Shown here: one piece after another, positions 3,693-51,037 of the stretch | Position numbering within the stretch: the first letter of the stretch is position 1 | How the letters are laid out: every line of letters begins with the position of its first letter | Virus record (IMG/VR): IMGVR_UViG_3300045988_162372 | Reading direction: 5' to 3' (one strand) | Source: a virus | DNA length: 64,000 nucleotides | Translations under genes and position numbers: made by a program | The notes under the pieces: model-generated | What the model saw: the letters and a program-made list of their open reading frames with translations, nothing else | What the model was told of the DNA's origin: nothing | The model's database searches: none

Positions 3693-3708
3693 TGTACTCA
3701 AATGAGTT
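3693..3708 (+). repeat. dyad motif TGTACTC-N4-GAGTA, copy 1
   Basis: TGTACTCAAATGAGTT, 40 nt after stop of 3132-3653. Confidence 0.8.
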
Positions 3709-3759
3709 CTATTAACATTGTTTAACTAAAAATAATTTGGTAAACACATAGTTTGTTTT

Positions 3760-3767
3760 TATATTTG
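3760..3767 (+). promoter_or_regulatory. -7 promoter box TAnnTTTG
   Basis: TAtaTTTG(CA) upstream of ATG 3785. Confidence 0.6.
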
Positions 3768-3784
3768 CAATGTAATTAAAAGAT

Positions 3785-4090
3785 ATGATTATGAAAGAAA
3801 AGAAATTACCTATTATATTTTATGTTGTTTCATTAGGGTTTGCCTACAAAGATAATTATACTATATGTTTTAATGCTAAAGAAATCAAAAATGCGTTGGA
3901 TAAGTATATTAAGGTTGGGGAAAACACTAATAATGATATCATAATAAAGGTATATCGAATCGAAAATAGACATATACTTGAGGATTTTTCTAGAAGAAAA
4001 TTTGTAGAATTGTATCTTTCAGATGTAAATTATTTTAGTAATGGTTTAAAACATATTGAAGAGATAAGTATAAATTTGAATGAAGAATAA
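3785..4090 (+). CDS. hypothetical protein (101 aa)
   Basis: ORF track. Confidence 0.65.
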   Translation: MIMKEKKLPIIFYVVSLGFAYKDNYTICFNAKEIKNALDKYIKVGENTNNDIIIKVYRIENRHILEDFSRRKFVELYLSDVNYFSNGLKHIEEISINLNEE

Positions 4091-4096
4091 AGGTGT

Positions 4097-4112
4097 TGTA
4101 CTCAAATGAGTA
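4097..4112 (+). repeat. dyad motif TGTACTC-N4-GAGTA, copy 2
   Basis: TGTACTCAAATGAGTA, 7 nt after stop 4090. Confidence 0.8.
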
Positions 4113-4163
4113 TCAAATAACATTTATTAACGATAAAAATTTGGTTATATCAAGATAAAGTAT

Positions 4164-4171
4164 TAACTTTG
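4164..4171 (+). promoter_or_regulatory. -7 promoter box TAnnTTTG
   Basis: TAacTTTG(CA) upstream of ATG 4202. Confidence 0.6.
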
Positions 4172-4201
4172 CAGTGTCGAACGAAAAAAGATAATAAAGC
4201 A

Positions 4202-4372
4202 ATGGAAGAAAGAGATTATATTATCATTAGAGAGAACGGCAAACCTTTGACTTTCAAGGACGGACAGACGGTTGTCTATGGGAGTTATGAAGAGGCTAAG
4301 GACGATTTATGCAAGACTGACCTTTGCATTATGCCCTTGGAAGACTATAACAAGATTATCAATAAACATTAA
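4202..4372 (+). CDS. hypothetical protein (56 aa)
   Basis: ORF 4169-4372 trimmed to first ATG downstream of the promoter box, which lies inside the longer call. Confidence 0.6.
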   Translation: MEERDYIIIRENGKPLTFKDGQTVVYGSYEEAKDDLCKTDLCIMPLEDYNKIINKH

Positions 4373-4391
4373 TAAAATAGGAGGTAATAAT

Positions 4392-4664
4392 ATGAAAGTG
4401 TATGTCATTGTAAGTAACGAGAATAATTTGGGTGAGTTGACTACAAATTGCGAAGGTGTGTTCCTGTCAAAAGACAAGGCGTTGGAACAACTCAAAAAGA
4501 ACGGGGAAGACCTTATGAATGATGAGGATTTTACAGATGAGGAATATGACAAGTATGTGGACGAAGATTGTAATGACTTCAACTTCACGGCAATGAACAA
4601 GGATAACGGTGAAATTGAATATACAATGTATCAATGCGTCCTTGAAAAGGAAATAACCGAATGA
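4392..4664 (+). CDS. hypothetical protein (90 aa)
   Basis: ORF 4272-4664 trimmed to the ATG preceded by TAGGAGGT; N-terminus MKVY... resembles 16187-16393. Confidence 0.65.
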   Translation: MKVYVIVSNENNLGELTTNCEGVFLSKDKALEQLKKNGEDLMNDEDFTDEEYDKYVDEDCNDFNFTAMNKDNGEIEYTMYQCVLEKEITE

Positions 4665-4666
4665 TA

Positions 4667-4682
4667 TGTACTCAAATGAGTA
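4667..4682 (+). repeat. dyad motif TGTACTC-N4-GAGTA, copy 3
   Basis: TGTACTCAAATGAGTA, 3 nt after stop 4664. Confidence 0.8.
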
Positions 4683-4767
4683 TGGTATTCTATTTTTTAA
4701 CGAACTTGAAGAAAAATATTTAGCAAAATTTCAATTTTATTGGCTTGCAATTAACAATTAAATTCAC

Positions 4768-4775
4768 TAATTTTG
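4768..4775 (+). promoter_or_regulatory. -7 promoter box TAnnTTTG
   Basis: TAatTTTG(CA) upstream of ATG 4804. Confidence 0.6.
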
Positions 4776-4803
4776 CAACGTCAAACAAAAAGATAATAAG
4801 ACT

Positions 4804-4974
4804 ATGGACAAGAGATTTGTATATGTAACGGTTAAGATGGAAATCACTAATCCAAACAAGGAGGTTATCACGGACGAGGATATCGAAAATGTTATCAATG
4901 ATGTTGACTACAACTTCAATGATGTGGATGATTTTCATATCAATACTGAAATTGTAGATTATGAATGCAACTAA
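4804..4974 (+). CDS. hypothetical acidic protein (56 aa), not in ORF track
   Basis: Hand translation MDKRFVYVTVKMEITNPNKEVITDEDIENV...VDYECN*; own promoter; the minus ORF 4720-5010 covering it looks spurious. Confidence 0.5.
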   Translation: MDKRFVYVTVKMEITNPNKEVITDEDIENVINDVDYNFNDVDDFHINTEIVDYECN

Positions 4975-4988
4975 ACACAAAGAATAAT

Positions 4989-5258
4989 ATGATGATATTT
5001 GTAATAACACTTTCAGATAAGAAATTTGATGAGAAATACAGAAATTTCTGTTATAAGAATCTCACATCACTCACAAAGCAATTTAGGGGCGATCTGGAAG
5101 ACTATCTTGATGATATGGATGATTACCTTACCGATAAGGATGAAAAGGAACTAGACGAACTTATTTCACGTCTAACAAAAACTTCAAGTGTAGGCAAAAC
5201 TATGAAATTAAAAGGTCTTGGCATTGAATTCACCTTAAGGAAAGAGGATTTGAAATAA
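4989..5258 (+). CDS. hypothetical protein (89 aa)
   Basis: ORF 4965-5258 trimmed to ATG after the stop of the preceding ORF. Confidence 0.55.
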   Translation: MMIFVITLSDKKFDEKYRNFCYKNLTSLTKQFRGDLEDYLDDMDDYLTDKDEKELDELISRLTKTSSVGKTMKLKGLGIEFTLRKEDLK

Positions 5259-5304
5259 AAACAATTTTTAACGAAAAAGATTTGGTTATATCAAGAATAA
5301 TACG

Positions 5305-5312
5305 TATCTTTG
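5305..5312 (+). promoter_or_regulatory. -7 promoter box TAnnTTTG (drives leader RNA + tRNA)
   Basis: TAtcTTTG(CA); no ORF between it and the tRNA. Confidence 0.6.
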
Positions 5313-5317
5313 CAGTG

Positions 5318-5586
5318 TAAATAAGAAAGAGAGAGAGTGATAAACTTTATGCTTGGCTAGCCCTTCGGATGTATTTGGTCGGATATGTTCGTCGTTTAAT
5401 TAAGGAAGCTACAATTCCCTTACGACCTTAAATATCAGTTCGCTAACAAACTGATTATGGATAAGGTAGCGTGTTAGCTAACATATAAAGGGCCTGCCAA
5501 AATTAGCCCTAATGATAAAAAACTAGTAAAGACGAAGTTTCTTCTGTTAATATGGTTGGGAAGTTTTAGATAGTCTTAAATTTAGA
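5318..5586 (+). ncRNA. ORF-free structured leader upstream of tRNA (candidate ncRNA)
   Basis: Several hairpins, e.g. ATCAGTT/AACTGAT 5434-5456, palindrome GTTAGCTAAC, AGGGC/GCCCT; no coding potential. Confidence 0.4.
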
Positions 5587-5660
5587 GGGCCTGTAACTCA
5601 GTCGGTAAGAGTAACTGACTCATAATCAGGAGGTCGCAGGTTCAAGCCCTGCCAGGCCCA
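5587..5660 (+). tRNA. tRNA with CAU anticodon (elongator Met or Ile2/lysidine type)
   Basis: Hand-folded cloverleaf: acceptor GGGCCTG/CAGGCCC, D stem ACTC/GAGT, anticodon loop CTCATAA, T stem GCAGG/CCTGC, T loop TTCAAGC, A73; no encoded CCA. Confidence 0.9.
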
Positions 5661-5665
5661 CACAA

Positions 5666-5681
5666 TGTACTCAATCGAGTA
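5666..5681 (+). repeat. dyad motif TGTACTC-N4-GAGTA, copy 4
   Basis: TGTACTCAATCGAGTA, 6 nt after tRNA 3' end. Confidence 0.8.
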
Positions 5682-5737
5682 TGGTATATTTAACAAATAA
5701 TTAACACGAAAAACTTGCAGGGTTGAAGAAAACTTCG

Positions 5738-5745
5738 TATCTTTG
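5738..5745 (+). promoter_or_regulatory. -7 promoter box TAnnTTTG
   Basis: TAtcTTTG(CA) upstream of ATG 5803. Confidence 0.65.
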
Positions 5746-5802
5746 CAATGTTGAAAGAGAAAATAAAAGGTCAAACATTAAAAAACATAGGAGATTAAGA
5801 CA

Positions 5803-6252
5803 ATGAACATTTCAGTTAAGTTTGGAACATTCAACGTGGTAGAGAACAAGGAAAACAACGGTATTTCTATCTATAACGGTAACAATAAAGTTCTAGACAT
5901 TGCCAACATTAATTGGTGGGATAAGGACGCTATTGAAAATGCAATGTATGCCAAAGAAAGCCTTATCAAAGAACGTAATAAAGACTACAGAGATGTAAAG
6001 ATCGAGAGCCTTAATCAAGCTATTGAGGCTATGAAAAAGATACATGAAAACGAAATCAACAAGTGGAAAGAAAGATATCGTGTACTGGCTGAAAGCAAGA
6101 ACAACATTTCAATCAATGATGGAAATGTGGTTGAGGTGCTTGAAACTGCTAATAATGTGTTGAAGAATATTTCAGATAAGAAGAATAGAGGATTTGTTTG
6201 TAGTCGTGTATCACAAGTTATCAACAAACTTCGTTCTATCACTGCTGAATAA
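5803..6252 (+). CDS. hypothetical protein (149 aa)
   Basis: ORF track; SD TAGGAGAT; own promoter. Confidence 0.7.
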   Translation: MNISVKFGTFNVVENKENNGISIYNGNNKVLDIANINWWDKDAIENAMYAKESLIKERNKDYRDVKIESLNQAIEAMKKIHENEINKWKERYRVLAESKNNISINDGNVVEVLETANNVLKNISDKKNRGFVCSRVSQVINKLRSITAE

Positions 6253-6436
6253 AACAAAATATTAACGGGATGCCTTTTCACAAGCCCGTATTCAGAAAAG
6301 TCAAAGAGGTTGTTTTAGTGTAACGTCCGCTTAAAACGTAAAACATTTCCTCCGCAGGGTTGATTGCTATCCTAATTGGTTCGTTAAGACCCTTGATTTA
6401 TATTGTTTATTAACATTAAAAGATATCATAATCATT

Positions 6437-6589
6437 ATGAAAGTACAAGAGAAAAAGAAAACAAATCAAGAGTTGAGAACTGCAAAGAAATTGAAAGGTG
6501 TGTATAAACACTGTATCAATATACTTTCATCCTCACCCAATGCAAAGCATATTGTTAAAAATATCGAGGCGAAGATGAAAAGTATTTAA
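6437..6589 (+). CDS. hypothetical basic protein (50 aa), not in ORF track
   Basis: Hand translation MKVQEKKKTNQELRTAKKLKGVYKHC...; no clear promoter or SD. Confidence 0.3.
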   Translation: MKVQEKKKTNQELRTAKKLKGVYKHCINILSSSPNAKHIVKNIEAKMKSI

Positions 6590-6711
6590 AACCTCCTATG
6601 TTGAAAAGGGGTAGGCAAAATTCTTATCAAGTATATATAAGCTATCATTGCGATTAAAGTCCTACCCCTTTGTTCTTATCACAAAAAAAAAATGATTGTT
6701 AGATTATGAAG

Positions 6712-6744
6712 TAGCACCGTCTGTGAAGATAGTGCTATTTTTTT
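6712..6744 (+). terminator. rho-independent terminator
   Basis: Stem TAGCAC/GTGCTA followed by T7. Confidence 0.65.
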
Positions 6745-6753
6745 ATACCTATA

Positions 6754-6769
6754 TGTACTCGATTGAGTA
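6754..6769 (+). repeat. dyad motif TGTACTC-N4-GAGTA, copy 5
   Basis: TGTACTCGATTGAGTA. Confidence 0.8.
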
Positions 6770-6843
6770 TTGTTATTCCAATTTATTAACTATTCGTTTA
6801 TTTTTATTTAACCTAAATAATTTGGTTGATATATCAAATATTA

Positions 6844-6851
6844 TTACCTTT
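6844..6851 (+). promoter_or_regulatory. -7 promoter box TAnnTTTG
   Basis: TAccTTTG(CA); about 150-nt leader with long-range pairing AGCCCCT 6871-6877 / AGGGGCT 6938-6944 before ATG 7003. Confidence 0.6.
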
Positions 6852-7002
6852 GCACATAAAAAGCTAAATTAGCCCCTATAATCAATTATCTATTATTAAA
6901 TGATAATTCTATCATAAGAAATAAGATAATGAAATTGAGGGGCTGAAAATAGCATTAAATCATATTATGATAATACATAAACTAATAAACGTATATTAAA
7001 GT

Positions 7003-8211
7003 ATGAAGAAAGATTTAATTGGCAAATGGTATAACCCAGACCTTACAGACGAGCAAAATGTTTCTTTATTAAAGGAACATGGTATTAGCATTTCAAAAAG
7101 AACATTGATTACTTGGAGAAAAAATCAAGGTATCGCAAAACAGCGTGGAGGTGATAGAAAAAGTATAGATTTTAAAAATCAAAGTGCAATTTTCAAAGTG
7201 CAAAATATTGCAGATAAATCAAAGTGCAATTTTCAAAGTGCAAATTCTTCTGAAAATCAAAGTGAAGAAATCAAAGTGCAATTATTAACTAATCAAAGTG
7301 CAAAAATTACAAAATCAAAGTGCAAAAATCAAGATGCAATTTTAGAAAATCAAAGTATCATTTCTGACCAAAGTATCAAAATCAAAGTATCAAACCCTCT
7401 AAATCAAAGTGCAATTTCAGAAGAAGAAAGTGATGTTCTGGATTGGGATAATGAAGATGAAAAGTTCGTGGAAATAATGCCGAAAGGTAGAATAACAAGT
7501 GAAATGTATGATAAGATGTTCGGCGATGATAGCGTTCCACATTACACTGGAAAAACACCTCCCAAACAAATAACTCTTGAAACTTTCAGAAATGAAACAG
7601 AGGATTTGCCAGTTAAGGATGTTAAGTATTATCTTTCAAAAAATCTTCCCGAAGTGATTGATGATGCAGAGGAATTCAAGAAGTGGATTAACGCCACATT
7701 CTACCTATTGAAAGGTACAAAAAACTGGACTGACTATCTGTTACATAGAGAAACATACAGCAAGATTTTGGCAGCGGCAAATAGAGGGTATAGTGCTGAT
7801 TATGAGAAGGGTACAACCGTTGAACAATGGCAAATTCAAAGGGCAAAGGATAGCTATTATAAAATGTGGGAAAACTATAAATACCCATACTTTGAAAAGA
7901 AATATTCTAACGAACCTTATAATGTCGCTTGCGAGGATTTATATAAGACTTACGGGATTGTTCCAATGAGGTTGGAAGATTACAGAAGAATAATGGATGA
8001 AAAGATGGGAAAGAAACAAGAGAAAATCAATTCAGACCCAAATTGGCAACCGTTCTCAATGAAAGGAAATACATACGCTGATGAGGATTATGACGAAGAT
8101 GAGGAAGAGGAAATTGAAAGAAAGAATTGCGATAAGGATATTTCAAACAAAGCTGTAAACGGAATGACAAATGAAGAAATGATGAGATTTGTTTGTGATG
8201 GAAATTTCTAA
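7003..8211 (+). CDS. putative DNA-binding, replication-initiator-like protein carrying iterons in its own coding sequence
   Basis: N-terminal HTH-like segment (EQNVSLLKEHGISISKRTLITWRKNQG); NQSA/KSKC repeats encoded by 12-nt DNA repeats; acidic C-terminus. Confidence 0.55.
   Translation: MKKDLIGKWYNPDLTDEQNVSLLKEHGISISKRTLITWRKNQGIAKQRGGDRKSIDFKNQSAIFKVQNIADKSKCNFQSANSSENQSEEIKVQLLTNQSAKITKSKCKNQDAILENQSIISDQSIKIKVSNPLNQSAISEEESDVLDWDNEDEKFVEIMPKGRITSEMYDKMFGDDSVPHYTGKTPPKQITLETFRNETEDLPVKDVKYYLSKNLPEVIDDAEEFKKWINATFYLLKGTKNWTDYLLHRETYSKILAAANRGYSADYEKGTTVEQWQIQRAKDSYYKMWENYKYPYFEKKYSNEPYNVACEDLYKTYGIVPMRLEDYRRIMDEKMGKKQEKINSDPNWQPFSMKGNTYADEDYDEDEEEEIERKNCDKDISNKAVNGMTNEEMMRFVCDGNF
7178..7413 (+). 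repeat. iteron cluster 1: 13 copies of ATCAAAGTGCAA / ATCAAAGTATCA
   Basis: Copies counted by eye at 7178, 7193, 7218, 7233, 7256, 7270, 7292, 7314, 7328, 7349, 7367, 7381, 7402. Confidence 0.85.
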
Positions 8212-8321
8212 ATCAAAGTATCATTTCTGACCAAAGTGAAAAAATCAAAGTGCAATTTTCAAAGTGCAAATTCTTCTGAAAATCAAAGTATCAAAAGCAA
8301 AGTGAAGAAATCAAAGTATCA
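8212..8321 (+). repeat. iteron cluster 2: 7 copies of the same 12-mer family
   Basis: Starts right after stop 8209-8211. 45-bp exact repeat 7218-7262 = 8244-8288; 26-bp exact repeat 7349-7374 = 8212-8237. Confidence 0.85.
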
Positions 8322-8338
8322 TTTTTCCAGATATTATT

Positions 8339-8517
8339 GTATACTTCTCGTTGTTAACAATAATAATCGTTAACGTTAATATTGTATACTAGTATAGTAT
8401 AATAATGTTAACGTATAATACCATATACTCATATAGTACAATATTCTATACATTATTACCGTATACTCGTATAGTATATTATTCTCTTGCGATATTACTG
8501 TATACTGGTATACTAGG
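8339..8517 (+). repeat. 5 spaced copies of GTATACTnGTATAGTA-like element, period about 38-44 bp
   Basis: Copies at 8339, 8383, 8422, 8460, 8499; each contains a short palindrome (ATACT/AGTAT). Confidence 0.7.
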
Positions 8518-8525
8518 ATCGATCT

Positions 8526-8569
8526 GGAAAGAAAAAGAAGAAAAAAATAAAAAAAAAAGAAAAAGAAAG
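8526..8569 (+). repeat. polypurine (A/G) tract
   Basis: 44 nt of A/G interrupted by a single T. Confidence 0.8.
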
Positions 8570-8837
8570 TGTCAAACATTATCCTTGCAAGGAAATAATA
8601 TCTACATTCAAACGGGCGTAAGCGAAATAAAGCGTTCTGGGTAATTTTCTCGTAGTGAGGTAATAACTTATACCACTTTAACGTAAAAATGCCTTAGAAA
8701 CGAAAAGAAAGGTATTCTGACGCAAATTTCAATCGTAAGAATGTGAACGAATGTTACAATATCAGCGTTAAAGGTGAAAATTAGCTAACGTAATGAAGAT
8801 TTTTCTTATTTCATTTGGAAGATTAAATAAAATGTTG

Positions 8838-8845
8838 TATCTTTG
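8838..8845 (+). promoter_or_regulatory. -7 promoter box TAnnTTTG
   Basis: TAtcTTTG(CA); SD TAGGAGGA; ATG 8907. Confidence 0.65.
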
Positions 8846-8906
8846 CATCGTTCTTAGAAGTAGAACAATAATATTAACTTTTTAATTTCATAGGAGGATT
8901 TGAATT

Positions 8907-9812
8907 ATGAGTCATTTCGCAGTTATGGTCATCGGAGATAATGTTGAAGAACAACTATCAAAGTATGATGAAAACATTAAAGTAGAGGAATATTGTAAGG
9001 GAGAAGTTACAGAAGACGAGAAGAAGTGCATGATCGAATATTACGAGCGTGAAAAGGGTGAAACATTCAATAGCTTCGATGAATGCTATACAAGGTACGG
9101 GAAAGATTGGAATGATAACCGTTACAGAAAAGATACAGACGGTAAGTGGAAAGTATATAGCACATACAACCCTCTTTCAAAATGGGATTGGTGGCAAGTC
9201 GGAGGTCGTTTCTCTGGTGCATTTATCACTCATATCAAAAAGGATGTAAAGGTTTCAGATGAAAATTACGGAGAGCCTTCGTGGTGTACAAAAGAGATTG
9301 GAGTTGACCGCATTGAAAAGAAACATATTGATTTTGAAGCAATACGCAAGGATGCTGAAACTGATGCAAGAGAACGCTATCGTAATATTGCGAGATTGTT
9401 TAAGAATGGAGAAATACCAAAGGTAGGCATGACTTGGGCAAAGGTATGTGAATTGTTCAAAGATAAAACTTTGGATGAAAAACGGAATATCTACAATGCA
9501 CAAACGGCTGTCATTGAATGGAACAAAGCAAGAGAAGAGGATAAAAATAGTACTTCACCCGTACTTGGTTTCTTTACAAGTATTGAGGATTACCAAATGA
9601 GTGAAGAAGAATATGTCAAGAAAGCTGGTGATGAATCTTTTGTTCCCTTTGCAGTTGTCAAGGATGGTAAATGGTATGAGCGTGGAGAAATGGGATGGTG
9701 GGCAATGGTAGCCAACGAAAAAGAGCCAACAGAATGGAATGAAATTGTAAGGAAATTGTTAGATGAAACTGACGATGATGAAATGATAACATTTGTTGAT
9801 TGTCATATTTGA
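8907..9812 (+). CDS. hypothetical protein (301 aa)
   Basis: ORF track; SD; motif WDWWQVGGRF; family not recognised. Confidence 0.75.
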   Translation: MSHFAVMVIGDNVEEQLSKYDENIKVEEYCKGEVTEDEKKCMIEYYEREKGETFNSFDECYTRYGKDWNDNRYRKDTDGKWKVYSTYNPLSKWDWWQVGGRFSGAFITHIKKDVKVSDENYGEPSWCTKEIGVDRIEKKHIDFEAIRKDAETDARERYRNIARLFKNGEIPKVGMTWAKVCELFKDKTLDEKRNIYNAQTAVIEWNKAREEDKNSTSPVLGFFTSIEDYQMSEEEYVKKAGDESFVPFAVVKDGKWYERGEMGWWAMVANEKEPTEWNEIVRKLLDETDDDEMITFVDCHI

Positions 9813-9936: not shown

Positions 9937-11037
9937 ATGAAAGATATAAAGCAACACTTAAATGTATTAATGTATGATCTTACATTGAAAAAGATAGAAG
10001 ATGTTAAAATCGGTGACTTATTAATGGGTGACGATGGTACATATAGAAGAGTAATAAGTAAAACAAATAAATATGGTAAGATATATAATATACATCAAAC
10101 TAGTGGGGAAGATTATTTTACAAATGGTGAACATACGCTTGTATTAAAAAAATCGGAAACTGCCAAGAGGCCATACGGTAATATAACGAAAAAAGGTACA
10201 CTTCGACATCCTAATGGACGATTGGCATCTTATGAGGATTATGAAAATATGAATATAATAGATTTTTTGCAAAAATCACTTACATTTAGAGAAAATTTTT
10301 TCACTTTTAAACCTACAACAATTCATTGTGAAGAAAAAGAAGTGTATATTGATCCTTATCTCCTGGGTATTTGGTTAGGAGATGGTTCTGCTCGTAATAC
10401 TTCAATAATCTCAATGGATGATGAAATTATTAAGTACATATATGAGTATGCAGACAAAAATAATTTATCTGTGAATAAACTTGAACGGGATTGGGAAAAA
10501 GCTGATGTATATAAATTAAATAGACCACTTGTTAATAGGACAAGGAAGAATGAGCTTCTAGAAAATTTACGAAAATATAATTTAATAAATAATAAACACA
10601 TTCCACAAGAATATATAAATAATAGTGAAAGAGTTAGAATTGAATTAATGGCAGGATTAATAGATACAGATGGCAGTTTGTCTAAAAATAACGTTTATGA
10701 ATTTTATCAAAAATCGTATGATTTTATACGAGATGTTAAAATAATTGCGGATTCTTTAGGATTTAGAACAAGTTTACGTGAAAAGAAAAATTGTATTTGT
10801 AATGGAAAAAATTATGGAACACATTATAGATTAAGTATAAGCGGAGATTTATGGAGAATACCGTGTAAAGTGAAAAGAAAAAAGGTAACAAAAGATATGT
10901 TAAGCAAAAATAAGGATTGGAGAGTTTCAATGATTAAACCTATTGAAATAGGGGATGGCGAATATACTGAAATAAAAGTTGATGGAAATGGAAACTATTT
11001 ATTAGGTGACTTTACAATAGCACATAATTCGATATAG
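9937..11037 (+). CDS. free-standing intein-like (Hint + LAGLIDADG) homing endonuclease
   Basis: Intein blocks: VLMYDLTLKKIEDVKIGD (A, Cys1 replaced by Asn), TNGEHTLVL (B), LLGIWLGDGS and LMAGLIDTDGS (two LAGLIDADG), EIKVDGNGNYLLGDFTIAHNS (F/G); no promoter box; more AT-rich than neighbours. Confidence 0.8.
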   Translation: MKDIKQHLNVLMYDLTLKKIEDVKIGDLLMGDDGTYRRVISKTNKYGKIYNIHQTSGEDYFTNGEHTLVLKKSETAKRPYGNITKKGTLRHPNGRLASYEDYENMNIIDFLQKSLTFRENFFTFKPTTIHCEEKEVYIDPYLLGIWLGDGSARNTSIISMDDEIIKYIYEYADKNNLSVNKLERDWEKADVYKLNRPLVNRTRKNELLENLRKYNLINNKHIPQEYINNSERVRIELMAGLIDTDGSLSKNNVYEFYQKSYDFIRDVKIIADSLGFRTSLREKKNCICNGKNYGTHYRLSISGDLWRIPCKVKRKKVTKDMLSKNKDWRVSMIKPIEIGDGEYTEIKVDGNGNYLLGDFTIAHNSI

Positions 11038-11041
11038 TAAG

Positions 11042-11746
11042 ATGAATCAAATAGACATTAGAAAAATAGTTAATGAATGTATCTCTGCTTTAAAAGAGAG
11101 ACATTGTATAATTCAAGAAAATAGACTCGTAACATTTGGTAAAAGAGTATATCCTAATAGTGGGTGGTGTATTTTTTTAACAGGTGGTTCTGGATGTGGA
11201 AAAGGCTATACACTTAATAATCAACTTCCAATCAACGGAAAAGTTATCAATGTTGACCATTGGAAGAAAACCTTTGCCAAAATGAATAATATTGACTATG
11301 ATAGCCATGACCCAGAACAAGTAAGTCAATTACATAAAGCAATTGCAGATAAGGGTTATAAGGAGAAATATATAAACAATCTTTTTAACCCACAAGCACA
11401 CAATAGCAAAGACAGATTACCAAACATTATCTTTGACATTACAGGAAAAAATCCCTACCATGATGTCTTGGATATTGCGCAGGACGCACAAGACTTAGGA
11501 TATAAGACAATGCTTGTATGGGTAGTTGCGACAAGAAGTGAAGCAATACTAAGAAACTTGAAAAGGGATAGAAAGGTTCCAGATTCAGTCTTTCACTCAA
11601 TACACAATATGATATTGGACAATATGCCACGTTTCCTGCAAGGAAGTTATGCCACAGAGTGTTTGGATGATGCTTGGCTTATATTTTCTTCCGCCCCGAT
11701 ATTTCCAGAGGTGATTTGGAGGGTGATGAAAAGAAAACAGCCGTAG
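11042..11746 (+). CDS. P-loop kinase, zeta-toxin-like fold (N-terminal part of an apparently frameshifted gene)
   Basis: Walker A GGSGCGKG; GYKTMLVWVVATRSEAILRNLKRDRKVP resembles the zeta-toxin family C-terminal motif. Confidence 0.6.
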   Translation: MNQIDIRKIVNECISALKERHCIIQENRLVTFGKRVYPNSGWCIFLTGGSGCGKGYTLNNQLPINGKVINVDHWKKTFAKMNNIDYDSHDPEQVSQLHKAIADKGYKEKYINNLFNPQAHNSKDRLPNIIFDITGKNPYHDVLDIAQDAQDLGYKTMLVWVVATRSEAILRNLKRDRKVPDSVFHSIHNMILDNMPRFLQGSYATECLDDAWLIFSSAPIFPEVIWRVMKRKQP

Positions 11747-22044: not shown

Positions 22045-22061
22045 AAACTAATATAGTTATT

Positions 22062-22325: not shown

Positions 22326-22340
22326 TAACAATGTACGCGA

Positions 22341-23576: not shown

Positions 23577-23622
23577 ACTTTATTCATATTTATAAATTGT
23601 AACTTAATTATTTTTTGCATTG

Positions 23623-41530: not shown

Positions 41531-42088
41531 ATGAACACAACTTTTAATTTCAAGAAAGGCGATTATGTAATCTTTACTGATACATATAATAATGATTATG
41601 TAGATATCATCGGGGATTATAACCCAGAGAATAATAGTGTAGAGGAAATTGTTTCCGTTATGTATATGGATAGAAATGGAGGTGAGGAAGAAGGATTTAT
41701 CTACTATCGTACAACTTTATTTTTAGATGCAGTAAAGGAAATGCGTCTTGCAACAAAGGATGAGGTAAACTTTTTGAACGCTGTCTTAATGGATGATGAC
41801 AATAAGTTTGACAAGGATAAGATGGAAGTTGTTAGCAGGGAAACTGGTACGAAGAAGACATTTCATCTGACAAGAACCGTCATGCTCGGTGGCTATTATC
41901 AAGACACTATTGATGTGGAAGCAGAGAATTTGGAAATTGCTTTAAACAAGGCCACTGAATTCAATTCATCTTCTGAAAATGTATGGGCCACTATGGATAA
42001 GGATGAAATCATTATGGACGAATCTGATATTAAACGGATAGAAATTTCTGATGCTAACGGAGAAGAGTATCGTGAAATTGATTTTTAA
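41531..42088 (+). CDS. hypothetical protein (185 aa)
   Basis: ORF track; SD. Confidence 0.7.
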   Translation: MNTTFNFKKGDYVIFTDTYNNDYVDIIGDYNPENNSVEEIVSVMYMDRNGGEEEGFIYYRTTLFLDAVKEMRLATKDEVNFLNAVLMDDDNKFDKDKMEVVSRETGTKKTFHLTRTVMLGGYYQDTIDVEAENLEIALNKATEFNSSSENVWATMDKDEIIMDESDIKRIEISDANGEEYREIDF

Positions 42089-42096: not shown

Positions 42097-42114
42097 TGTA
42101 CTTGAATGAGTACA
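42097..42114 (+). repeat. dyad motif, copy 8 (TGTACTTGAATGAGTACA)
   Basis: The C-to-T change at stem position 6 would keep a G.U pair in RNA; 9 nt after stop 42088. Confidence 0.75.
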
Positions 42115-42381
42115 AAGGGTTTCAAAAATAATTTATTTAATTTTTATTCTCAAATGATTTAAATTTATAAAAAGTATGAAAAGAAACAACACTATCGAAG
42201 AATTATCAACAAAGGCTATGTTTATCAAACATTTGTTGAGGCAAAGGAGGGTACAACTGTTTTCGACGGAATTGACGAAGCGATAGATAATGCAATTGAT
42301 GCAACTGATAAAGGGGGTAGTATCTATGTTATTGTTGATAACGAGAATAATAAAGTACAGGTACTTGATGATGGATGTGGA

Positions 42382-43791
42382 ATGACACATACATTACTAA
42401 AAGATGTGATGCAAAATGCAACTTTTCATAAAGCAGATGGAAAATCTATTGGTATTAATGGTATTGGCATAAAAAAGTTTGCAGCTATTGTTGGTAATCT
42501 TCGTGGTTGTCGTTTGAATGTATTGTCAAGTAAGGGTGATGGATATGTTTCTTCTGCCACATTGCATATTTCTCCGAATGATGAGGAGATTATTCACCCT
42601 ACTATAGAATGGTTTGAGAATGGAAACTTACCAGATAATGGTATGAATATTATTAATGGGAAGTTGAAAGGTACTATTGCAACTTTAACTTATACAGAAG
42701 AAGTTAATTTTACCGATGATATTATTGAGCAATATTCAATTAAATATGCAGAACAAATTTTATTGAACAAGAAACACATTTTTATTAATGATAAGGAATT
42801 AGTTGCAATTGACCCTACTCATACAATAGGTATCAATGATATCAATAAAGACCTTATTGTAGATGAAGAAAATAGATTGTATATTGCTAATTTTAAATTA
42901 GAAGCCTTTATTGAGGGACAAGAGAATATTAAAATACCGTTTATTGTAACATCTGTGCAGGCACTCGATCCGTCACTTCTTCGTAAAAAATATCCTTTTG
43001 AAAATAAGCCTTTTAATTATCTGGGTGGTATATACACTATTCGTGGTGGACGTTTCATTGATTATGGTAATAATACCAATATAATGTTTGCTATGGAAAG
43101 CAGTAAACTTGGCTCAACCAAAGGCAGTGGAATGTATGGAGATATTAGTGGTAGCCTAGCTGGATACAACCGTTTGATTATTAATCTGGATAATACGGAA
43201 AGCGCACGTTTATTTGGTGTCCAATCAATTAAAAGCAAGGGAATAATTCCATTGCATGAAAATGACAACCTTTTCAAATATAAGGTTAATGTAAATGGGG
43301 TGAAAATTACGGTATTTGAAGCTATTTCATACATTCGTTGTTTTAACCATAAATTCTACACAACAACCATTAAATCTTCTAAATATAATTGGAAGAATTT
43401 TAGAGAAGATGTTTACAAGAAATTTTATGAATACGATTTTTCTACGTCCAAACAGATTAAAAAGTCAGTAACTTCTGCCACGGCACACAAGAGTAAGAAT
43501 AACGAAGAGGCGATTTATACCATCGCTGATAGTGCTTGTTATCTTAAAGTTCAATGGAAACAGAACGCTCATAACGACAAGGCAAAAATTGTGTATTCAT
43601 TACCTAATGAAGATTGTTTGTTGTACAGACGCAATAAAGAAAATGTAAATCTAATTAGTAAACTTACAACACTTTTCATAGAAGATTTTAAGTGTTTCGC
43701 TGATTATGCTCATTATGATAGGGAGGGTATTAAGAATTTACTAATTGCAAGAACAAATCAATATCTTGATAAAATGAAAGAGGAGGAATAA
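42382..43791 (+). CDS. GHKL (HATPase_c_3/MORC-like) ATPase; the listed ATG truncates the ATP-binding domain
   Basis: ATG 42382 is the M of the G1 box DDGCGM; the N box EAIDNAIDA is encoded in the same frame at 42277-42303; frame open from 42163 with no ATG/GTG/TTG. Confidence 0.7.
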   Translation: MTHTLLKDVMQNATFHKADGKSIGINGIGIKKFAAIVGNLRGCRLNVLSSKGDGYVSSATLHISPNDEEIIHPTIEWFENGNLPDNGMNIINGKLKGTIATLTYTEEVNFTDDIIEQYSIKYAEQILLNKKHIFINDKELVAIDPTHTIGINDINKDLIVDEENRLYIANFKLEAFIEGQENIKIPFIVTSVQALDPSLLRKKYPFENKPFNYLGGIYTIRGGRFIDYGNNTNIMFAMESSKLGSTKGSGMYGDISGSLAGYNRLIINLDNTESARLFGVQSIKSKGIIPLHENDNLFKYKVNVNGVKITVFEAISYIRCFNHKFYTTTIKSSKYNWKNFREDVYKKFYEYDFSTSKQIKKSVTSATAHKSKNNEEAIYTIADSACYLKVQWKQNAHNDKAKIVYSLPNEDCLLYRRNKENVNLISKLTTLFIEDFKCFADYAHYDREGIKNLLIARTNQYLDKMKEEE

Positions 43792-43845
43792 TATGGAAAA
43801 GTATTTTGTAATTTTTTATTATAAACCAAAGTAAATTTTAATAAA

Positions 43846-44238
43846 ATGAAAAATTTAACATTAAACAATGTGCGAATTGCATGGAATGAAAGTAAGAATA
43901 GTGAATTCTTAAAAACTAAAATGGTTGTGTATAAGTTGGTATTTCCAGATAATACTTGCTATGTAGGATTGACATCACTCACTATGTATGAAATGCTTTC
44001 AAATCTATGTAAGTATTATCATCAGGGAATGAGTAGAATTAATCAAAAAATAAAAGATTATCGTTCTTTCCTTGCTGAAGTGCTTTATGAAGCGGAAGAT
44101 AAAAATGATGCCGAGGATTATAAAAAATATGCAATTTCTAAAATAGTTAAAGAAATTGCACAGAAAGGGCATCTAAGAAAATACCACCATTTACAAGATG
44201 ATAATATTCTAAAAGTCTTATTAAACGATAGGTGGTAA
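43846..44238 (+). CDS. GIY-YIG-like domain protein (degenerate)
   Basis: VVYKLVFPDNTCYVGLT fits GIY-x9-YIG spacing; downstream catalytic residues not clearly seen. Confidence 0.4.
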   Translation: MKNLTLNNVRIAWNESKNSEFLKTKMVVYKLVFPDNTCYVGLTSLTMYEMLSNLCKYYHQGMSRINQKIKDYRSFLAEVLYEAEDKNDAEDYKKYAISKIVKEIAQKGHLRKYHHLQDDNILKVLLNDRW

Positions 44239-44973
44239 ATTCTCTGTAAATTTATTTATTCTTTCGTTAGTCATATCAACATATATTTTGAATTTTTCAA
44301 AACCAATATATTCAAAGTTATGTTGTAATGCAGCAAGAGCAACCGTACCACTACCCATAAATGGGTCTAAGACTATTATATTGTTATTCTCTTTTGATGG
44401 GATACAATCCATAATATTGTTAGGCAAGTCTATTGGGAATGGTGCGGGATGCTTTGTATTTTTTTCAAATGGGAATGACCATATTTCGTTTTTGTATTTT
44501 GTCGTAAGGCTACGATAAAAATTAGGTTTAGTTGTTTTTGTTAGCCAAAATACTAATTCAGTCATTGGTAGGAAACGACAAGTATTGACGTTATTCGTAC
44601 TTCCCCTATCCCATATAATTTCTTGTCTGATTTTGAATTTTGTTTTGAACAGCCATTGATAAGGTGATACTATTTCACCTTTATGTATTCTGTTTTTATG
44701 ATTGTAAAACATTGATCCGTCAGACTTTAAGACTCTGAAACATTCATTTAAGAAATTTATTTGCCATTTTTGGTATTCATCTTCTGGAATATTATCGACA
44801 TTTACATCATCATTGTAATCTATCGTTCCTTTCCATTTCTTACCTTTTTGTATACCGTTAAGACCTGCTTTATTGTAAGGTGGCGAAGTAATGATTAAAT
44901 CTATTGAATTATCATCCAATAATTTCAGGCCATCCATCACATCTATATTATATATTCTGTTTGTTTCTAACAT
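44221..44973 (-). CDS. DNA methyltransferase, beta class (N4-C or N6-A)
   Basis: Motif IV DLIITSPPYN near the N-terminus, motif I VLDPFMGSGTVALAA near the C-terminus; only minus-strand gene in a 60-kb + block. Confidence 0.85.
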   Translation of the reverse strand: MLETNRIYNIDVMDGLKLLDDNSIDLIITSPPYNKAGLNGIQKGKKWKGTIDYNDDVNVDNIPEDEYQKWQINFLNECFRVLKSDGSMFYNHKNRIHKGEIVSPYQWLFKTKFKIRQEIIWDRGSTNNVNTCRFLPMTELVFWLTKTTKPNFYRSLTTKYKNEIWSFPFEKNTKHPAPFPIDLPNNIMDCIPSKENNNIIVLDPFMGSGTVALAALQHNFEYIGFEKFKIYVDMTNERINKFTENLPPIV

Positions 44974-48202: not shown

Positions 48203-48913
48203 ATGAAGTATATTCAACGATATATAAAGACGTTGGCAGATGGAGTCATTGAAAAGAAATCAGAAATATCAAACTCGGTATATTATAAATTAACTGGTAA
48301 AGACGGGAGTAGATTTACCATACGTTGTAGCGACCATTTTTCTGTAATGAAAGCATATATCACCAATGATATTGACATCATACAGGCGTTTGGTGAAAAG
48401 GATAAGTTTGTTGTAATGTATGATGAATACAACACCCCAATGATAAAAAATCGTAAAGAAACAAAAGACTTCATTAAATTCGCTTATGACTTGTATATGA
48501 TGAAAACCTTTAAAAAAGAAAGTGAAATGTTAAAGAAGAGTAAAGAAAGCATAAGTGAAGAAGAGTTGATGGAAATCAGAGATTTACCAGAAAGTGTTTC
48601 TTTGAAATGGAATAATCATCTAGCAGACGTAGTAAAACTAAAACATAAGCATACAAAAGTATTTGAAGGTGAATGGTCATCGTTCTATGGTATGCTTGTA
48701 TGTACATTTAAAGGCAGAATCGAATTTACCAAGAAGGAACGAGATATAATTGCCAAATATTTGGAAAAAGAATACCTGAACAGGGACGAAATTTGCGAAG
48801 TATTGTACAATATTGTATCATTAGAACCTAAAAGAGAGTTTAACGAAGGAAAATTAAAACAATATCTCTATCATAGATATTTGATGAAAAAAGAAGAGGA
48901 GGAAAAGAAATGA
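48203..48913 (+). CDS. hypothetical protein (236 aa)
   Basis: ORF 48194 (TTG) trimmed to ATG 48203. Confidence 0.65.
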   Translation: MKYIQRYIKTLADGVIEKKSEISNSVYYKLTGKDGSRFTIRCSDHFSVMKAYITNDIDIIQAFGEKDKFVVMYDEYNTPMIKNRKETKDFIKFAYDLYMMKTFKKESEMLKKSKESISEEELMEIRDLPESVSLKWNNHLADVVKLKHKHTKVFEGEWSSFYGMLVCTFKGRIEFTKKERDIIAKYLEKEYLNRDEICEVLYNIVSLEPKREFNEGKLKQYLYHRYLMKKEEEEKK

Positions 48914-49185
48914 CAAGAGAGGAATTAAATAAGATATTGGTTGAACATCATTTTCAACTGATTTCAGAACATAATAATAAACGTGTGACTACATATACCT
49001 ATACTTGTAGTATATCGTATCTCAATCGTTTTATCACATTCAATGTACTAAACGGTAGTGATGATATATATAATGATAGTGTTCTGTATGAGATACAATC
49101 ACCAATATATCATAGAACTATTGATAGTAGTGAATGGAAAGGAATACAAGAGGTGAAAGATTATTTAATAAGAAACCATTTCTGA
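48910..49185 (+). CDS. hypothetical protein (91 aa)
   Basis: ORF track; ATGA overlap. Confidence 0.65.
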   Translation: MTREELNKILVEHHFQLISEHNNKRVTTYTYTCSISYLNRFITFNVLNGSDDIYNDSVLYEIQSPIYHRTIDSSEWKGIQEVKDYLIRNHF

Positions 49186-49186
49186 A

Positions 49187-49206
49187 TTGTACTCAATTGA
49201 GTACAA
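49187..49206 (+). repeat. dyad motif, copy 9; perfect 20-bp palindrome TTGTACTCAATTGAGTACAA
   Basis: Starts 2 nt after stop 49185; 34 nt from the 16-nt core (49188-49203) to ATG 49238; no TAnnTTTG box. Confidence 0.85.
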
Positions 49207-49237
49207 GGACTCATCTAAATTTATAAAAAGGGAAGTT

Positions 49238-49465
49238 ATGGAAACATTTGAAATAGTATTGATAATATTAGGGTTGTTAATGTTGGTCTGTGCATTACTA
49301 TACAGTTATAATAGAGGTTGCTTGAATGGCTTAATGCAAGCAAAGAAAATTGTTGAACAATTATATAATGATATGGATGAACAAAAGAAAATATATCAAG
49401 ATATCTTAAAGGCATACCAGAAACTATTAGATGAAAAGAAAGAAAAAGGGCTTAATATTAATTAA
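49238..49465 (+). CDS. membrane-anchored protein (75 aa)
   Basis: ORF 49187 trimmed to ATG 49238 (the longer call starts inside the palindrome). Confidence 0.6.
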   Translation: METFEIVLIILGLLMLVCALLYSYNRGCLNGLMQAKKIVEQLYNDMDEQKKIYQDILKAYQKLLDEKKEKGLNIN

Positions 49466-49499
49466 CTATTATTCATTTGGCTAAACCAATAATAAGCGG

Positions 49500-49507
49500 T
49501 ATCTTTG
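49500..49507 (+). promoter_or_regulatory. -7 promoter box TAnnTTTG
   Basis: TAtcTTTG(CA) inside the longer ORF call 49477. Confidence 0.65.
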
Positions 49508-49533
49508 CAACAAATAAAATTAGAGAATATAGG

Positions 49534-49809
49534 ATGAAAGATGATAAATCAAAATATAAATTAATAGCAATAATAATGATGCTTGCAGGAATCTTATTCG
49601 ACGGTTCATTAATATTTTCCTGTATTATTGTAATGCTGTTTATGATGCCGCTTATTAACGTGAATCAAATTGAAGAAATGTCTATAAGTGAAATGACACA
49701 AGAAGATATTGAAACGATGGTTTTCAAAGCGTTGGCATATATGAGTATGTATGTTGCGAGTGTAGCGGTAGTTAATAATATGATAGAAACTGCTATGACC
49801 ACATTTTGA
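49534..49809 (+). CDS. membrane protein (91 aa)
   Basis: ORF 49477 (TTG) trimmed to ATG after the promoter. Confidence 0.6.
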   Translation: MKDDKSKYKLIAIIMMLAGILFDGSLIFSCIIVMLFMMPLINVNQIEEMSISEMTQEDIETMVFKALAYMSMYVASVAVVNNMIETAMTTF

Positions 49810-49820
49810 GTTATGGGCTA

Positions 49821-50423
49821 ATGAATGATAAAAATTTATTGAAAATGATAACAAGGTATATTGCAGGAAATTGTAAGATTGATATTGAAAAGAAAAAGGC
49901 AAATGATGAGGAAATCAAAAATTATATCAATAGTTTGCCTTTTAAAATTGTAGTGTATAACAAGGATAACCAATCATTGAAGAATTTATCCGCCTTTGAC
50001 AGCATTGATAATATTCGTGATTACAAACGAATGTATGGAAAGAAAAGCTATTTTACTTTTCCTATAAAAATCGAAGGAGAAGCAAGTATCAGGATTGACG
50101 ACGATGTTGTTGTAGAGGATAGCAAAGATGGCGTTATGGCTGTTTCTAAGCGTTATATGAGGACTTTCTTTCCTGAGTTGAAGACTGCCTTATCTAAGGA
50201 TGTAAAGCTCAAAGGACGGCAAATATGCGATAATTTTATAACTTCGTCATTATCTTCCATCATTAATCGGGAATATTACAATGTAACATTGTATGAGGGT
50301 GATAATGTACAGAATCTAAATATGATATTCGCAGATGATACGCTGGTACTTAGACGATATATTACCAATAACCTTGTATTGTCTAGTAATTCAATGAGGG
50401 CATTGGTGAATGAGATTAAATGA
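49821..50423 (+). CDS. hypothetical protein (200 aa)
   Basis: ORF 49806 (TTG) trimmed to ATG 49821. Confidence 0.6.
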   Translation: MNDKNLLKMITRYIAGNCKIDIEKKKANDEEIKNYINSLPFKIVVYNKDNQSLKNLSAFDSIDNIRDYKRMYGKKSYFTFPIKIEGEASIRIDDDVVVEDSKDGVMAVSKRYMRTFFPELKTALSKDVKLKGRQICDNFITSSLSSIINREYYNVTLYEGDNVQNLNMIFADDTLVLRRYITNNLVLSSNSMRALVNEIK

Positions 50424-50441
50424 AACTAAAATAGAATTTTT

Positions 50442-50993
50442 ATGGAAAGAACAGACAAATTTGTAGCAAAATTGGATAAGTTTGATACCACCGCTTTTCC
50501 TGACAGATATTATGACATCGAGGAAATGATATATGCTTATAAAAAACTAAACGAAACTGATGAAGTGGTTAATTCTCATCTTACTGCTCTTAAAAACATT
50601 ATAAACAATGCAAGAAAAGAAAAAGGAACGATGGTAATGGATAGGATACGTTTCTGGGAAAAATTGCTATATGATTTTTATCATATCAAAGTAATGGATA
50701 ACAATGAAACTGACAAAGTGCTTTACGAATTCTATTTCTATCCTTATAAAGTGGTAAGAAGTAATTCTACCGTCTTTGGATTATATTGTGAAAAGAAAAA
50801 TCAAGATAATTTTTATGTCTATGAATGTGGTATTGTAGATAAGGGTCTTAATATCTTCAAGGATCTGGGAACAAACCCTATGGAAATTGAATATTCTGAT
50901 GAAAAGGAGATGTTGAAGAATGCAACAGATACGTGTAAGAACTTGATTGATATGCGAATGTGGAAACTGAAATACAGGGATAAGGTAATTTAA
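50442..50993 (+). CDS. hypothetical protein (183 aa)
   Basis: ORF track. Confidence 0.7.
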   Translation: MERTDKFVAKLDKFDTTAFPDRYYDIEEMIYAYKKLNETDEVVNSHLTALKNIINNARKEKGTMVMDRIRFWEKLLYDFYHIKVMDNNETDKVLYEFYFYPYKVVRSNSTVFGLYCEKKNQDNFYVYECGIVDKGLNIFKDLGTNPMEIEYSDEKEMLKNATDTCKNLIDMRMWKLKYRDKVI

Positions 50994-51021
50994 TGTTTTG
51001 ACATAAGAAATAATTTCTGTA

Positions 51022-51037
51022 TGTACTCAATTGAGTA
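51022..51037 (+). repeat. dyad motif TGTACTC-N4-GAGTA, copy 10
   Basis: TGTACTCAATTGAGTA; 32 nt before ATG 51070; no TAnnTTTG box. Confidence 0.8.

Follow-up and report, generated by a model that had tools for sequence, protein, structure and literature searches.

A conserved, oriented inverted repeat at gene ends in a family of probable Bacteroidota jumbo phages as a candidate transcript punctuation signal

The DNA analysed here, referred to as the window, is a 64-kb stretch of a roughly 216-kb phage genome (IMG/VR virus record IMGVR_UViG_3300045988_162372), in which a short inverted repeat (dyad), TGTACTC-N4-GAGTA, recurs at gene boundaries. How uncultured jumbo phages of gut and rumen Bacteroidota regulate their genes is essentially uncharted. 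The window has 30-33% G+C, and nearly all of its genes lie on the + strand. Pfam scans recognised genes for an IS605-type TnpB, an open reading frame (ORF) of the Hint/LAGLIDADG type, an RNA ligase, a tRNA-ligase-type phosphodiesterase domain, NAPRTase, a formyltransferase, two DNA methyltransferases, a radical-SAM protein, a KH_2 protein and a phage ProQ-C-like protein. Matches to TTTG-N17-21-TAnnTTTG, the promoter pattern of Bacteroidota, numbered 43, with 34 on the + strand, suggesting that the host is very probably a member of the Bacteroidota. It probably belongs to the Bacteroidales and lives in gut or rumen; the phages themselves are probably lytic jumbo phages. The closest relatives, IMGVR_UViG_3300045988_157961 (216 kb) and 3300013383_000073, are 84-99% identical to the window in mosaic blocks, and no close relative was found among deposited phage genomes. 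Analysis of 8-10-mer enrichment in intergenic DNA revealed two motif families only, the host-type promoter and the dyad, the latter being the only strongly enriched non-coding signal in the window besides that promoter.

A pattern search with TGTACTCNNNNGAGTA, allowing at most one mismatch, gave 13 matches in the window. These correspond to 11 distinct sites, all readable on the + strand and two of them also on the - strand. The mean over 100 dinucleotide-preserving shuffles, used as the control, was 0.16, and 13 matches were reached in none of them. All 11 copies were in, or straddled the edge of, the ~20% of the window that is non-coding, for which simple arithmetic gives about 0.2^11 under random placement, and all pointed the same way as the genes. 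A preliminary description of this DNA had already placed the copies in intergenic DNA or across stop codons, which the ORF map bears out. It had also named chance-level occurrence and random position in the full genome as the outcome that would speak against a signal, and what was found in the window is 11 sites against an expected 0.16, each non-coding or straddling an ORF edge. The spacers are AAAT (five copies), GAAT (two), AATT (two), AATC (one) and GATT (one), confirming the five central sequences reported earlier. Lone half-sites in the window numbered four, an estimated chance level, and other spacer lengths were likewise estimated to occur at about chance: in 450 kb of related DNA the spacer was 4 nt in 172 strand readings, while spacers of 0, 5 and 6 nt were each found twice.

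The copies are numbered 1 to 11 in order along the window, so that copies 6, 9 and 10 of the preliminary description are copies 7, 10 and 11 here. All ten copies listed there are present, although the one given as 24188 starts at 24189 and an eleventh, at 22332, had been missed. All rows below refer to the + strand. Copies 1-5 form composites of a stem-loop and an early promoter around small ORFan genes. Copy 1 (3693-3708; TGTACTCAAATGAGTT), in which the last arm base is changed, lies 39 nt past the stop codon of ORF 3132-3653, with a short hairpin just 5' of it and a host-type promoter downstream at 3736-3767. Copy 2 (4097-4112; TGTACTCAAATGAGTA) lies 6 nt past the stop of ORF 3785-4090 and is followed by a host-type promoter at 4140-4171. 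Copy 3 (4667-4682; TGTACTCAAATGAGTA, flanked by TG) is 2 nt past the stop of ORF 4272-4664 and has a -7-like box, TAATTTTG, ~85 nt downstream. Copy 4 (5666-5681; TGTACTCAATCGAGTA, flanked by TG) is located 4 nt past tRNA-Met (5587-5661), with the -7 box TATCTTTG ~60 nt downstream; the orthologous site in a related locus, L005 (related loci are cited here by L numbers), has the spacer AAAT in place of AATC. Copy 5 (6754-6769; TGTACTCGATTGAGTA) follows the T-run of a canonical intrinsic terminator (stem 6714-6735) by ~8 nt and precedes a host-type promoter at 6821-6852. The earlier account of these five copies therefore holds: they lie 2-40 nt past a stop codon, tRNA end or terminator, and each is 5' of a TTTG..TAnnTTTG promoter.

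Copy 6 (22332-22347; TGTACGCGAATGAGTA) lies 6 nt past the stop of ORF 22023-22325 and contains the ATG (22341) of ORF 22341-22736; its T-to-G variant is also present in the relatives L038, L052 and L218. Copy 7 (23007-23022; TGTACTCAAATGAGTA, flanked by TG) has the TGA stop of ORF 22708-23019 inside it and the ATG at 23056 33 nt on. Copy 8 (24189-24204; TGTACTCAAATGAGTA, flanked by TG) is found within an 890-nt AT-rich non-coding region (23577-24465) and is followed by a conserved hairpin (24227-24251) and then a terminator (24318-24345); the corresponding position carries dyads in L218 (spacer GATT, flank CA) and in L050. Copy 9 (42097-42114; TGTACTTGAATGAGTACA), with a C-to-T change in the 5' arm, is 8 nt past the stop of ORF 41531-42088. 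Copy 10 (49187-49206) is a perfect 20-bp palindrome, TTGTACTCAATTGAGTACAA, as had been described; it starts 1 nt past the stop of ORF 48910-49185, and its core ends 34 nt before the ATG at 49238. Copy 11 (51022-51037; TGTACTCAATTGAGTA, flanked by TT) is 28 nt past the stop of ORF 50442-50993 and 32 nt before the ATG at 51070, and the canonical host-type promoter pattern is unmatched on the + strand from 49476 to 57896. The reported spacing of 32-34 nt between copies 7, 10 and 11 and their start codons was thus reproduced. The claim that only the copy at 42097 has an altered arm was not, as the copy at 3693 is also changed (GAGTT) and that at 22332 is a variant too. An exact 15-mer, TAAATTTATAAAAAG, occurs twice (42160-42174 and 49216-49230), each time 3' of a palindromic dyad copy and shortly before an ATG, and contains a -7-like box with A instead of G; it was rejected as a general second box, being found only after these two palindromic copies.

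In exact-pattern scans of IMG/VR, many loci were found, on contigs of 90-380 kb, several with 2-4 copies in a few kb. The loci with intergenic copies ranged from 24% to about 44% G+C and had identical arms throughout, and dozens of uncultured relatives have this 16-20-base inverted repeat. In closer relatives the spacer and flanks drift (AATC vs AAAT at 5666; AAAT/TG vs GATT/CA at 24189) with the arms constant. Between the homologues of ORFs 22708-23019 and 23292-23576, the dyad persists in lineages in which these proteins are only 31-44% identical, and so does the second dyad, located after the long non-coding region that ensues. A 367-kb relative, IMGVR_UViG_3300010049_000009 (L009, L043), carries the dyad as AATACTCAAATGAGTAT, typically wedged between a terminator and a promoter. 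Its two loci have no Bacteroidota-type promoters and instead show a very dense single-strand series of TCGGA-N15-TATAWT, then ATAACAATAA (16 copies in 11 kb and 24 in 14 kb), suggesting another host or a sigma factor specific to the phage. The identity of the arms across such divergence and across a change of promoter type implies selection by a conserved reader, and with it a core regulatory step, rather than recent spread or a host-specific signal. Matches in 185,579 bacterial and archaeal genomes were almost only scattered single ones, at about the chance level (by simple arithmetic, about 280 expected for 596 Gb), indicating a signal of the phage family rather than of its host. Several copies were found on a few contigs of metagenome-assembled genomes, low in G+C or from rumen, which are probably mis-binned phage DNA. 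A literature search with the exact sequence of the motif gave no match in the papers searched. Collectively, these results identify the dyad as a genuine, strongly selected, family-wide and conserved non-coding signal, which upholds the earlier proposal of a phage-specific regulatory-type site to that extent.

The same comparisons bear on whether the dyad is a signal for recombination or mobility, either shuffling modules in the manner of the promoter-early stem-loop (PeSL) cassettes of T4 or spreading as a selfish palindrome, like repetitive extragenic palindromes (REPs), by means of a dedicated enzyme. The composites formed by copies 1-5 would fit such a role, as would a 2.1-kb stretch that is absent from the closest relative and starts a few nt past the copy at 42097, and breaks of homology at dyads in L012, L016 and L057. 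However, only 13 of 338 homology breakpoints were found at 25 nt or less from a dyad, no excess over what breakpoints placed at gene junctions would give (~12% of junctions have a dyad), and the 2.1-kb insertion is without a second flanking dyad. Furthermore, the ends of the TnpB element (flanks of 35875-37095) are unlike the dyad, no Y1/HUH transposase was detected in Pfam scans of the window, and the retention of orthologous positions across deep divergence argues for function rather than spread. We consider this role quite unlikely. Two specific forms of it were rejected: an integron-like cassette site at 42097, on account of the missing second dyad and the lack of breakpoint enrichment, and an IS605/TnpB end hairpin, for which there was no sequence similarity.

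Placement relative to genes was counted over the window and the related loci, using crude ORF calls. Of 621 junctions between co-directional genes, 72 had a dyad, as did 8 of 40 convergent and 1 of 42 divergent ones. One of the eight convergent cases is spurious and one doubtful, and at least four are independent and clear by their ORF maps; the lone divergent case is ambiguous, with a same-strand terminator preceding the dyad. The convergent sites are mostly the perfect palindrome TGTACTCAATTGAGTACA, which satisfies the asymmetric consensus on both sense strands. Where the flanks are not palindromic, 44 sites were co-oriented with both neighbouring genes and two were opposed, and these two again have AAAT on the sense strand when the spacer is used to orient them. 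About half of the sites are 2-19 nt past the upstream stop codon, and the shortest distance seen to a following start is about 14 nt. At three of ~10 distinct tRNA genes (window 5666, L034 and L115) the dyad lies 4-7 nt past the tRNA 3' end, an association that is suggestive only. It lies 0-12 nt past the T-run of a canonical terminator at window 6754, twice in L019, and in L009, L043 and L036, and 4-45 nt ahead of a terminator in L026, L036 and L050 (position 7581). Of 90 sites, 27 had a host-type -7 box 41-85 nt downstream, window copies 1-5 among them; helical periodicity over that range was not convincing, and most of the 90 had no promoter within 100 nt. The gap between dyad and promoter in L009 and L043 varied from 3 to >60 nt, and in L018, L033, L037 and L051 the dyad lies within the 5' leader of a gene for a 48-aa basic protein, ~28 nt 3' of a -7 box.

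The preliminary description had preferred a phage-specific middle or late promoter or operator. A promoter for phage-specific machinery, or an operator or activator site of a downstream promoter, would account for a conserved, oriented 20-nt motif 5' of genes and 14-50 nt before many start codons. It would also be consistent with the frequent position after terminators, with the 27 sites upstream of a host-type -7 box, and with the copy at 24189, which is followed by a structured stretch and a terminator without a host-type promoter upstream. The junction counts do not support this reading: presence at convergent junctions (8 of 40) and near-absence at divergent ones (1 of 42) count against a promoter or promoter operator and in favour of a polar gene-end signal. 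Some copies precede terminators by 4-45 nt, the spacing to promoter elements varies and shows no convincing helical phase, and the dyad hugs the upstream stop codon. Dyad symmetry is not known as a feature of sigma-dependent or single-subunit polymerase promoters. A promoter-type function is therefore unlikely.

The position table of 90 sites gave the consensus TA-TGTACTC-RAWY-GAGTA-YR. Among 78 sites oriented by a sense-strand spacer of AAAT or GAAT, TG was the 5' flank in 66 (85%), while the 3' flank was the symmetric CA in 10 (13%), TG in 31 and TA in 11. The spacer reads AAAT on the sense strand and almost never ATTT. All 11 window copies have C or T directly 3' of GAGTA, so that a G-C or G.U pair with the conserved G is retained on the sense strand only. 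Unlike a symmetric dimer operator, the site as a whole is without two-fold symmetry, both flanks and spacer being asymmetric; the dyad is a symmetric core within an asymmetric frame. As RNA, it is predicted to fold into a 5-8-bp stem with a tetraloop, two G-C pairs in the core and a free energy of -2.6 to -9.4 kcal/mol. The canonical terminators of the same window have stems of 8-12 bp. No U-run or T-run follows any of the 11 window copies, and over the 90 sites there was only a slight T enrichment 3-4 nt past the stem. The dyad thus has neither the stable G+C-rich stem nor the T-run of an intrinsic terminator, and on this point the preliminary description was right. A plain factor-independent terminator, or an RNA-stabilising hairpin without a specific reader, would explain the position at gene ends and the hairpin potential. 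It is very unlikely, given the weak AU-rich stem without a U-run and the canonical GC-rich hairpins with T-runs that the same phage uses elsewhere; mere structure would not hold an identical stem sequence across such divergent phages, and transcription must cross internal copies such as that at 51022. In an Rfam scan of the whole window the tRNA alone reached the gathering score, and at E<=1 on 3000-9000 the sole extra match was sub-threshold and overlapped the tRNA on the opposite strand.

From the motif, its invariance, orientation, placement and deep conservation, all of which are observed directly, we infer action at transcript ends, RNA as the active form and a phage-encoded reader. The placement statistics suggest that the dyad is most likely a polar, conditional signal at the ends of genes and transcription units, more likely to end or cut a transcript than to start one. 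The form of such a signal that we favour, with a probability of roughly 0.4, is punctuation at the RNA level, i.e. factor-dependent termination or processing at the dyad hairpin. The dyad would be transcribed within the sense RNA and form the short hairpin 5'-UGUACUC-RAWY-GAGUAYR-3'. A phage-encoded factor would recognise this hairpin by its sequence, and the transcript would then be terminated or cut, giving defined, hairpin-capped ends. Since genes 3' of internal copies, or with a promoter just 5' of a copy, need transcription through the dyad, the signal would be conditional or leaky. The RNA form is favoured by the strict strand specificity, the spacer bias on the sense strand, the C/T rule after GAGTA and the symmetric versions at most convergent junctions. 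The invariant arms, the variable A/T spacer of fixed length, the lack of covariation and the copies wedged between terminators and promoters favour a DNA form.

Several results weigh against RNA-level punctuation. Over 84 distinct sites there was no covariation beyond column composition (score 0.116, equal to the shuffled mean of 0.116), although the five core pairs are almost invariant and are therefore silent for or against pairing. Rare arm variants keep a wobble pair at window 42097 and in L034, and break the pair at window 3693, in the 22332 group and in L016; in the window itself, two of the three single arm variants are unpaired. The G.U pair at 42097, noted earlier, is on its own a weak argument for RNA. 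The hairpin is itself weak at the energies given above, and it is protein-DNA sites, more than protein-RNA hairpins, that typically combine invariant arms with a variable spacer. Several copies (window 6754; L009, L043) occupy the narrow gap between the T-run of a terminator and the promoter that follows, where an RNA element would be transcribed by read-through only, and one conserved copy (window 24189; L050 8363) is preceded not by a gene but by a 540-660-nt non-coding stretch. Finally, the search for a reader protein gave no candidate beyond circumstantial ones, the KH and ProQ-C-like proteins of the window, whose homologues were traced to close relatives only. The dyad-adjacent 94-aa protein (23292-23576) has homologues in relatives only and no Pfam or PHROG match, and its AlphaFold model was unusable (mean predicted local distance difference test score 49.6). 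PHROGs returned nothing for 20 early or dyad-flanking ORFs.

Covariation lends no support to an RNA structure, and the signal may be either a hairpin in the RNA that a phage factor reads or a polar roadblock bound to DNA. In the latter, a phage DNA-binding protein on the duplex dyad would stop or stall RNA polymerase arriving from the upstream gene, reinforcing nearby terminators and shielding the next promoter from read-through. The invariant arms, the strict 4-nt A/T-rich spacer and arm centres about one helical turn apart would suit such a protein, as would the absence of covariation and the perfect palindromes between convergent genes. Copies 0-12 nt past terminator T-runs, or 3-6 nt before the upstream element of a promoter, are in stretches that need no transcription for a DNA site to work. 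In addition, the dyad occurs in many dispersed copies, mostly outside promoters, and its orientation tracks transcription as in the stoperators of mycobacteriophages (PMC6550527, PMC9283540). On the other hand, a symmetric dimer leaves the asymmetry unexplained (5' TG in 85% vs 3' CA in 13%; AAAT but almost never ATTT), and the C/T rule after GAGTA obeys the logic of wobble pairing. Internal operon copies would shut off downstream genes whenever the protein is present, and no DNA-binding family was recognised among the proteins of the window, which covers 64 kb of the roughly 216-kb genome. We regard the roadblock as a serious but, on balance, doubtful alternative to RNA-level punctuation. The Bacteroidota LexA/SOS box (GGA-N5-TCC or CTAA-N5-TTAG; PMC8565304) was rejected since the motifs differ.

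The closest precedents are the conserved terminators of phiKZ-like phages, which are the nearest, the PeSL cassettes of T4 and the stoperators of mycobacteriophages, and the dyad probably resembles them mostly in its action; by their defining features it is outside each of these three families. In phiKZ and 201phi2-1, terminators with a conserved sequence motif have been mapped experimentally, some of them in 5' untranslated regions (UTRs) (PMC10914365, PMC11512511). As there, the dyad is a conserved-sequence stem-loop repeated many times in a jumbo phage and common to related genera, with its role at transcript ends suggested here by placement. The likeness extends to a short tail that is not a U-run (TTAT) in place of a long U-tract, and to copies in 5'UTRs just past promoters that are partly read through. 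The stem of the phiKZ motif, however, is strong and GC-rich (CCYCCCC..GGGRRGG), and the motif is predicted to act as an intrinsic terminator, whereas the dyad is AU-rich, weak and unrelated in sequence. phiKZ also transcribes with its own polymerases, while the visible promoters of the dyad phages are host-type, and 3' ends were mapped in phiKZ and 201phi2-1 whereas the dyad is known here from sequence alone. The PeSL cassettes of T4-type phages (PMC4122927, PMC2839356) likewise combine a stem-loop with a host-type early promoter between small ORFans in plastic regions of a large lytic phage, the arrangement seen in window copies 1-5 and, as a stem-loop joined to a host-type promoter, at 27 of the 90 family sites. 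PeSL stem-loops vary in sequence and share only a consensus shape, in contrast to the fixed sequence of the dyad. They are also defined by a link to indels and recombination, for which the dyad shows no enrichment (13 of 338 breakpoints), and more than half of the dyads are without an attached promoter. The stoperators of Cluster A mycobacteriophages, which act on elongating polymerase (PMC6550527, PMC9283540), are similar to the dyad as many genome-wide copies of a short asymmetric site, mostly not associated with promoters and oriented with transcription. They differ in being 13-14-bp non-palindromic sites for the monomeric immunity repressor of temperate phages, with a role in lysogeny; the dyad has a palindromic core, and no repressor or integrase was seen in the window.

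Two more distant comparisons concern hairpins at gene ends in general. REPs are short extragenic palindromes located at gene ends and between convergent genes, with a conserved 5' extension beside the stem; they are chromosomal, species-specific, usually longer, and spread by REP-associated tyrosine transposases (RAYTs). The dyad is similarly extragenic, occurs at gene ends and between convergent genes, and has a conserved 5' extension of its own, but no RAYT-like gene was found in the window and deeply diverged phages retain the dyad at orthologous positions. In phage T7, at RNase III sites, and in Mimivirus, under its hairpin rule, intergenic hairpins punctuate polycistronic or viral transcripts and define their ends. 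These hairpins are longer and recognised by shape, so their sequences vary from site to site, whereas the sequence of the dyad itself is invariant.

These comparisons raise the possibility, which we put forward tentatively, that these Bacteroidota jumbo phages have a punctuation system of their own, in which a phage protein reads a single invariant 18-20-nt hairpin or dyad and terminates or cleaves the transcript at it in a polar and time-dependent way, independently of host terminators and of promoter type. Such a factor-dependent, sequence-specific system would have no described counterpart in phages relying on the host polymerase. If the dyad ends or cuts transcripts, it would serve as a marker for annotating transcription-unit boundaries in this phage family and as a bait sequence for the reader protein, and it may also be of use in Bacteroides engineering as a compact, orthogonal insulator. 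If it is instead a DNA roadblock, the stoperator principle would be extended from temperate mycobacteriophages to large lytic phages.

Several other features of the window lie close to dyad copies. Upstream of copy 4, ~270 nt of non-coding DNA (5313-5586) separate a host-type promoter (5281-5312) from tRNA-Met (5587-5661); this stretch has no Rfam match at E<=1 and may represent a leader, or a small RNA transcribed together with the tRNA. Between copies 4 and 5 is the gene (6437-6589) of a conserved 48-50-aa Lys/Arg-rich early protein (..KGV..C..IL..S..), also present in L033 (807-953), L037 and L051. It is the basic protein whose gene has a dyad in its leader in four relatives and, speculatively, a candidate for an autoregulated nucleic-acid-binding factor. 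The 890-nt AT-rich region around copy 8 (23577-24465) contains many inverted repeats, including a 20-nt pair (24206-24225 and 24274-24293) that flanks the hairpin 24227-24251 3' of the dyad. It is ~90-92% conserved in close relatives, has a comparable region in L050 (7700-8360), and could be a small RNA or a replication origin. Just 3' of this region, the genes of the KH_2 protein (24739-25296; GKGG motif, E 1.4e-06) and the Phage_ProQ_C_like protein (25320-25727; E 4.8e-07) are adjacent, and both products carry domains of RNA-binding type.

The 2.1-kb stretch missing in the closest relative, L022, extends from 42115 to 44244 and starts a few nt from the 3' edge of the dyad at 42097. It contains a gene with GHKL-ATPase-like motifs, with its ATG at 42176 and a main frame open from ~42160 to 43791, that is seemingly frameshifted, and a 130-aa ORF (43846-44238) whose N-terminus is GIY-YIG-like by eye; neither has a Pfam match. 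The TnpB gene (35875-37095) encodes an IS605-family protein with HTH_OrfB, OrfB_IS605 and Cas12f1-like TNB domains and has no adjacent TnpA. TnpB is also found elsewhere in relatives, at 497-1639 of L217 and, by tblastn, in L004, L014 and L053.

Several 4-bp palindromes are far below their Markov expectation in the window: CCGG (0 vs 32), CGCG (1 vs 18), GATC (22 vs 175), GGCC (10 vs 45), CTAG (19 vs 68) and CATG (83 vs 199). This deficit is consistent with restriction-site avoidance. GTAC, which is part of the dyad arm, was rejected as a restriction target, since it is not avoided in the window. The Hint and LAGLIDADG ORF (9937-11037; 366 aa, C-terminal end ..AHNSI) lies between ORFs 8907-9812 and 11042-11746. 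It is without the usual initial Cys and has no obvious in-frame extein, and it may be a free-standing or degenerate intein-type endonuclease. The tRNA-ligase-type cyclic phosphodiesterase domain and the RNA ligase, encoded at 40432-41157 and 56313-56975, together suggest a capacity for RNA or tRNA repair.

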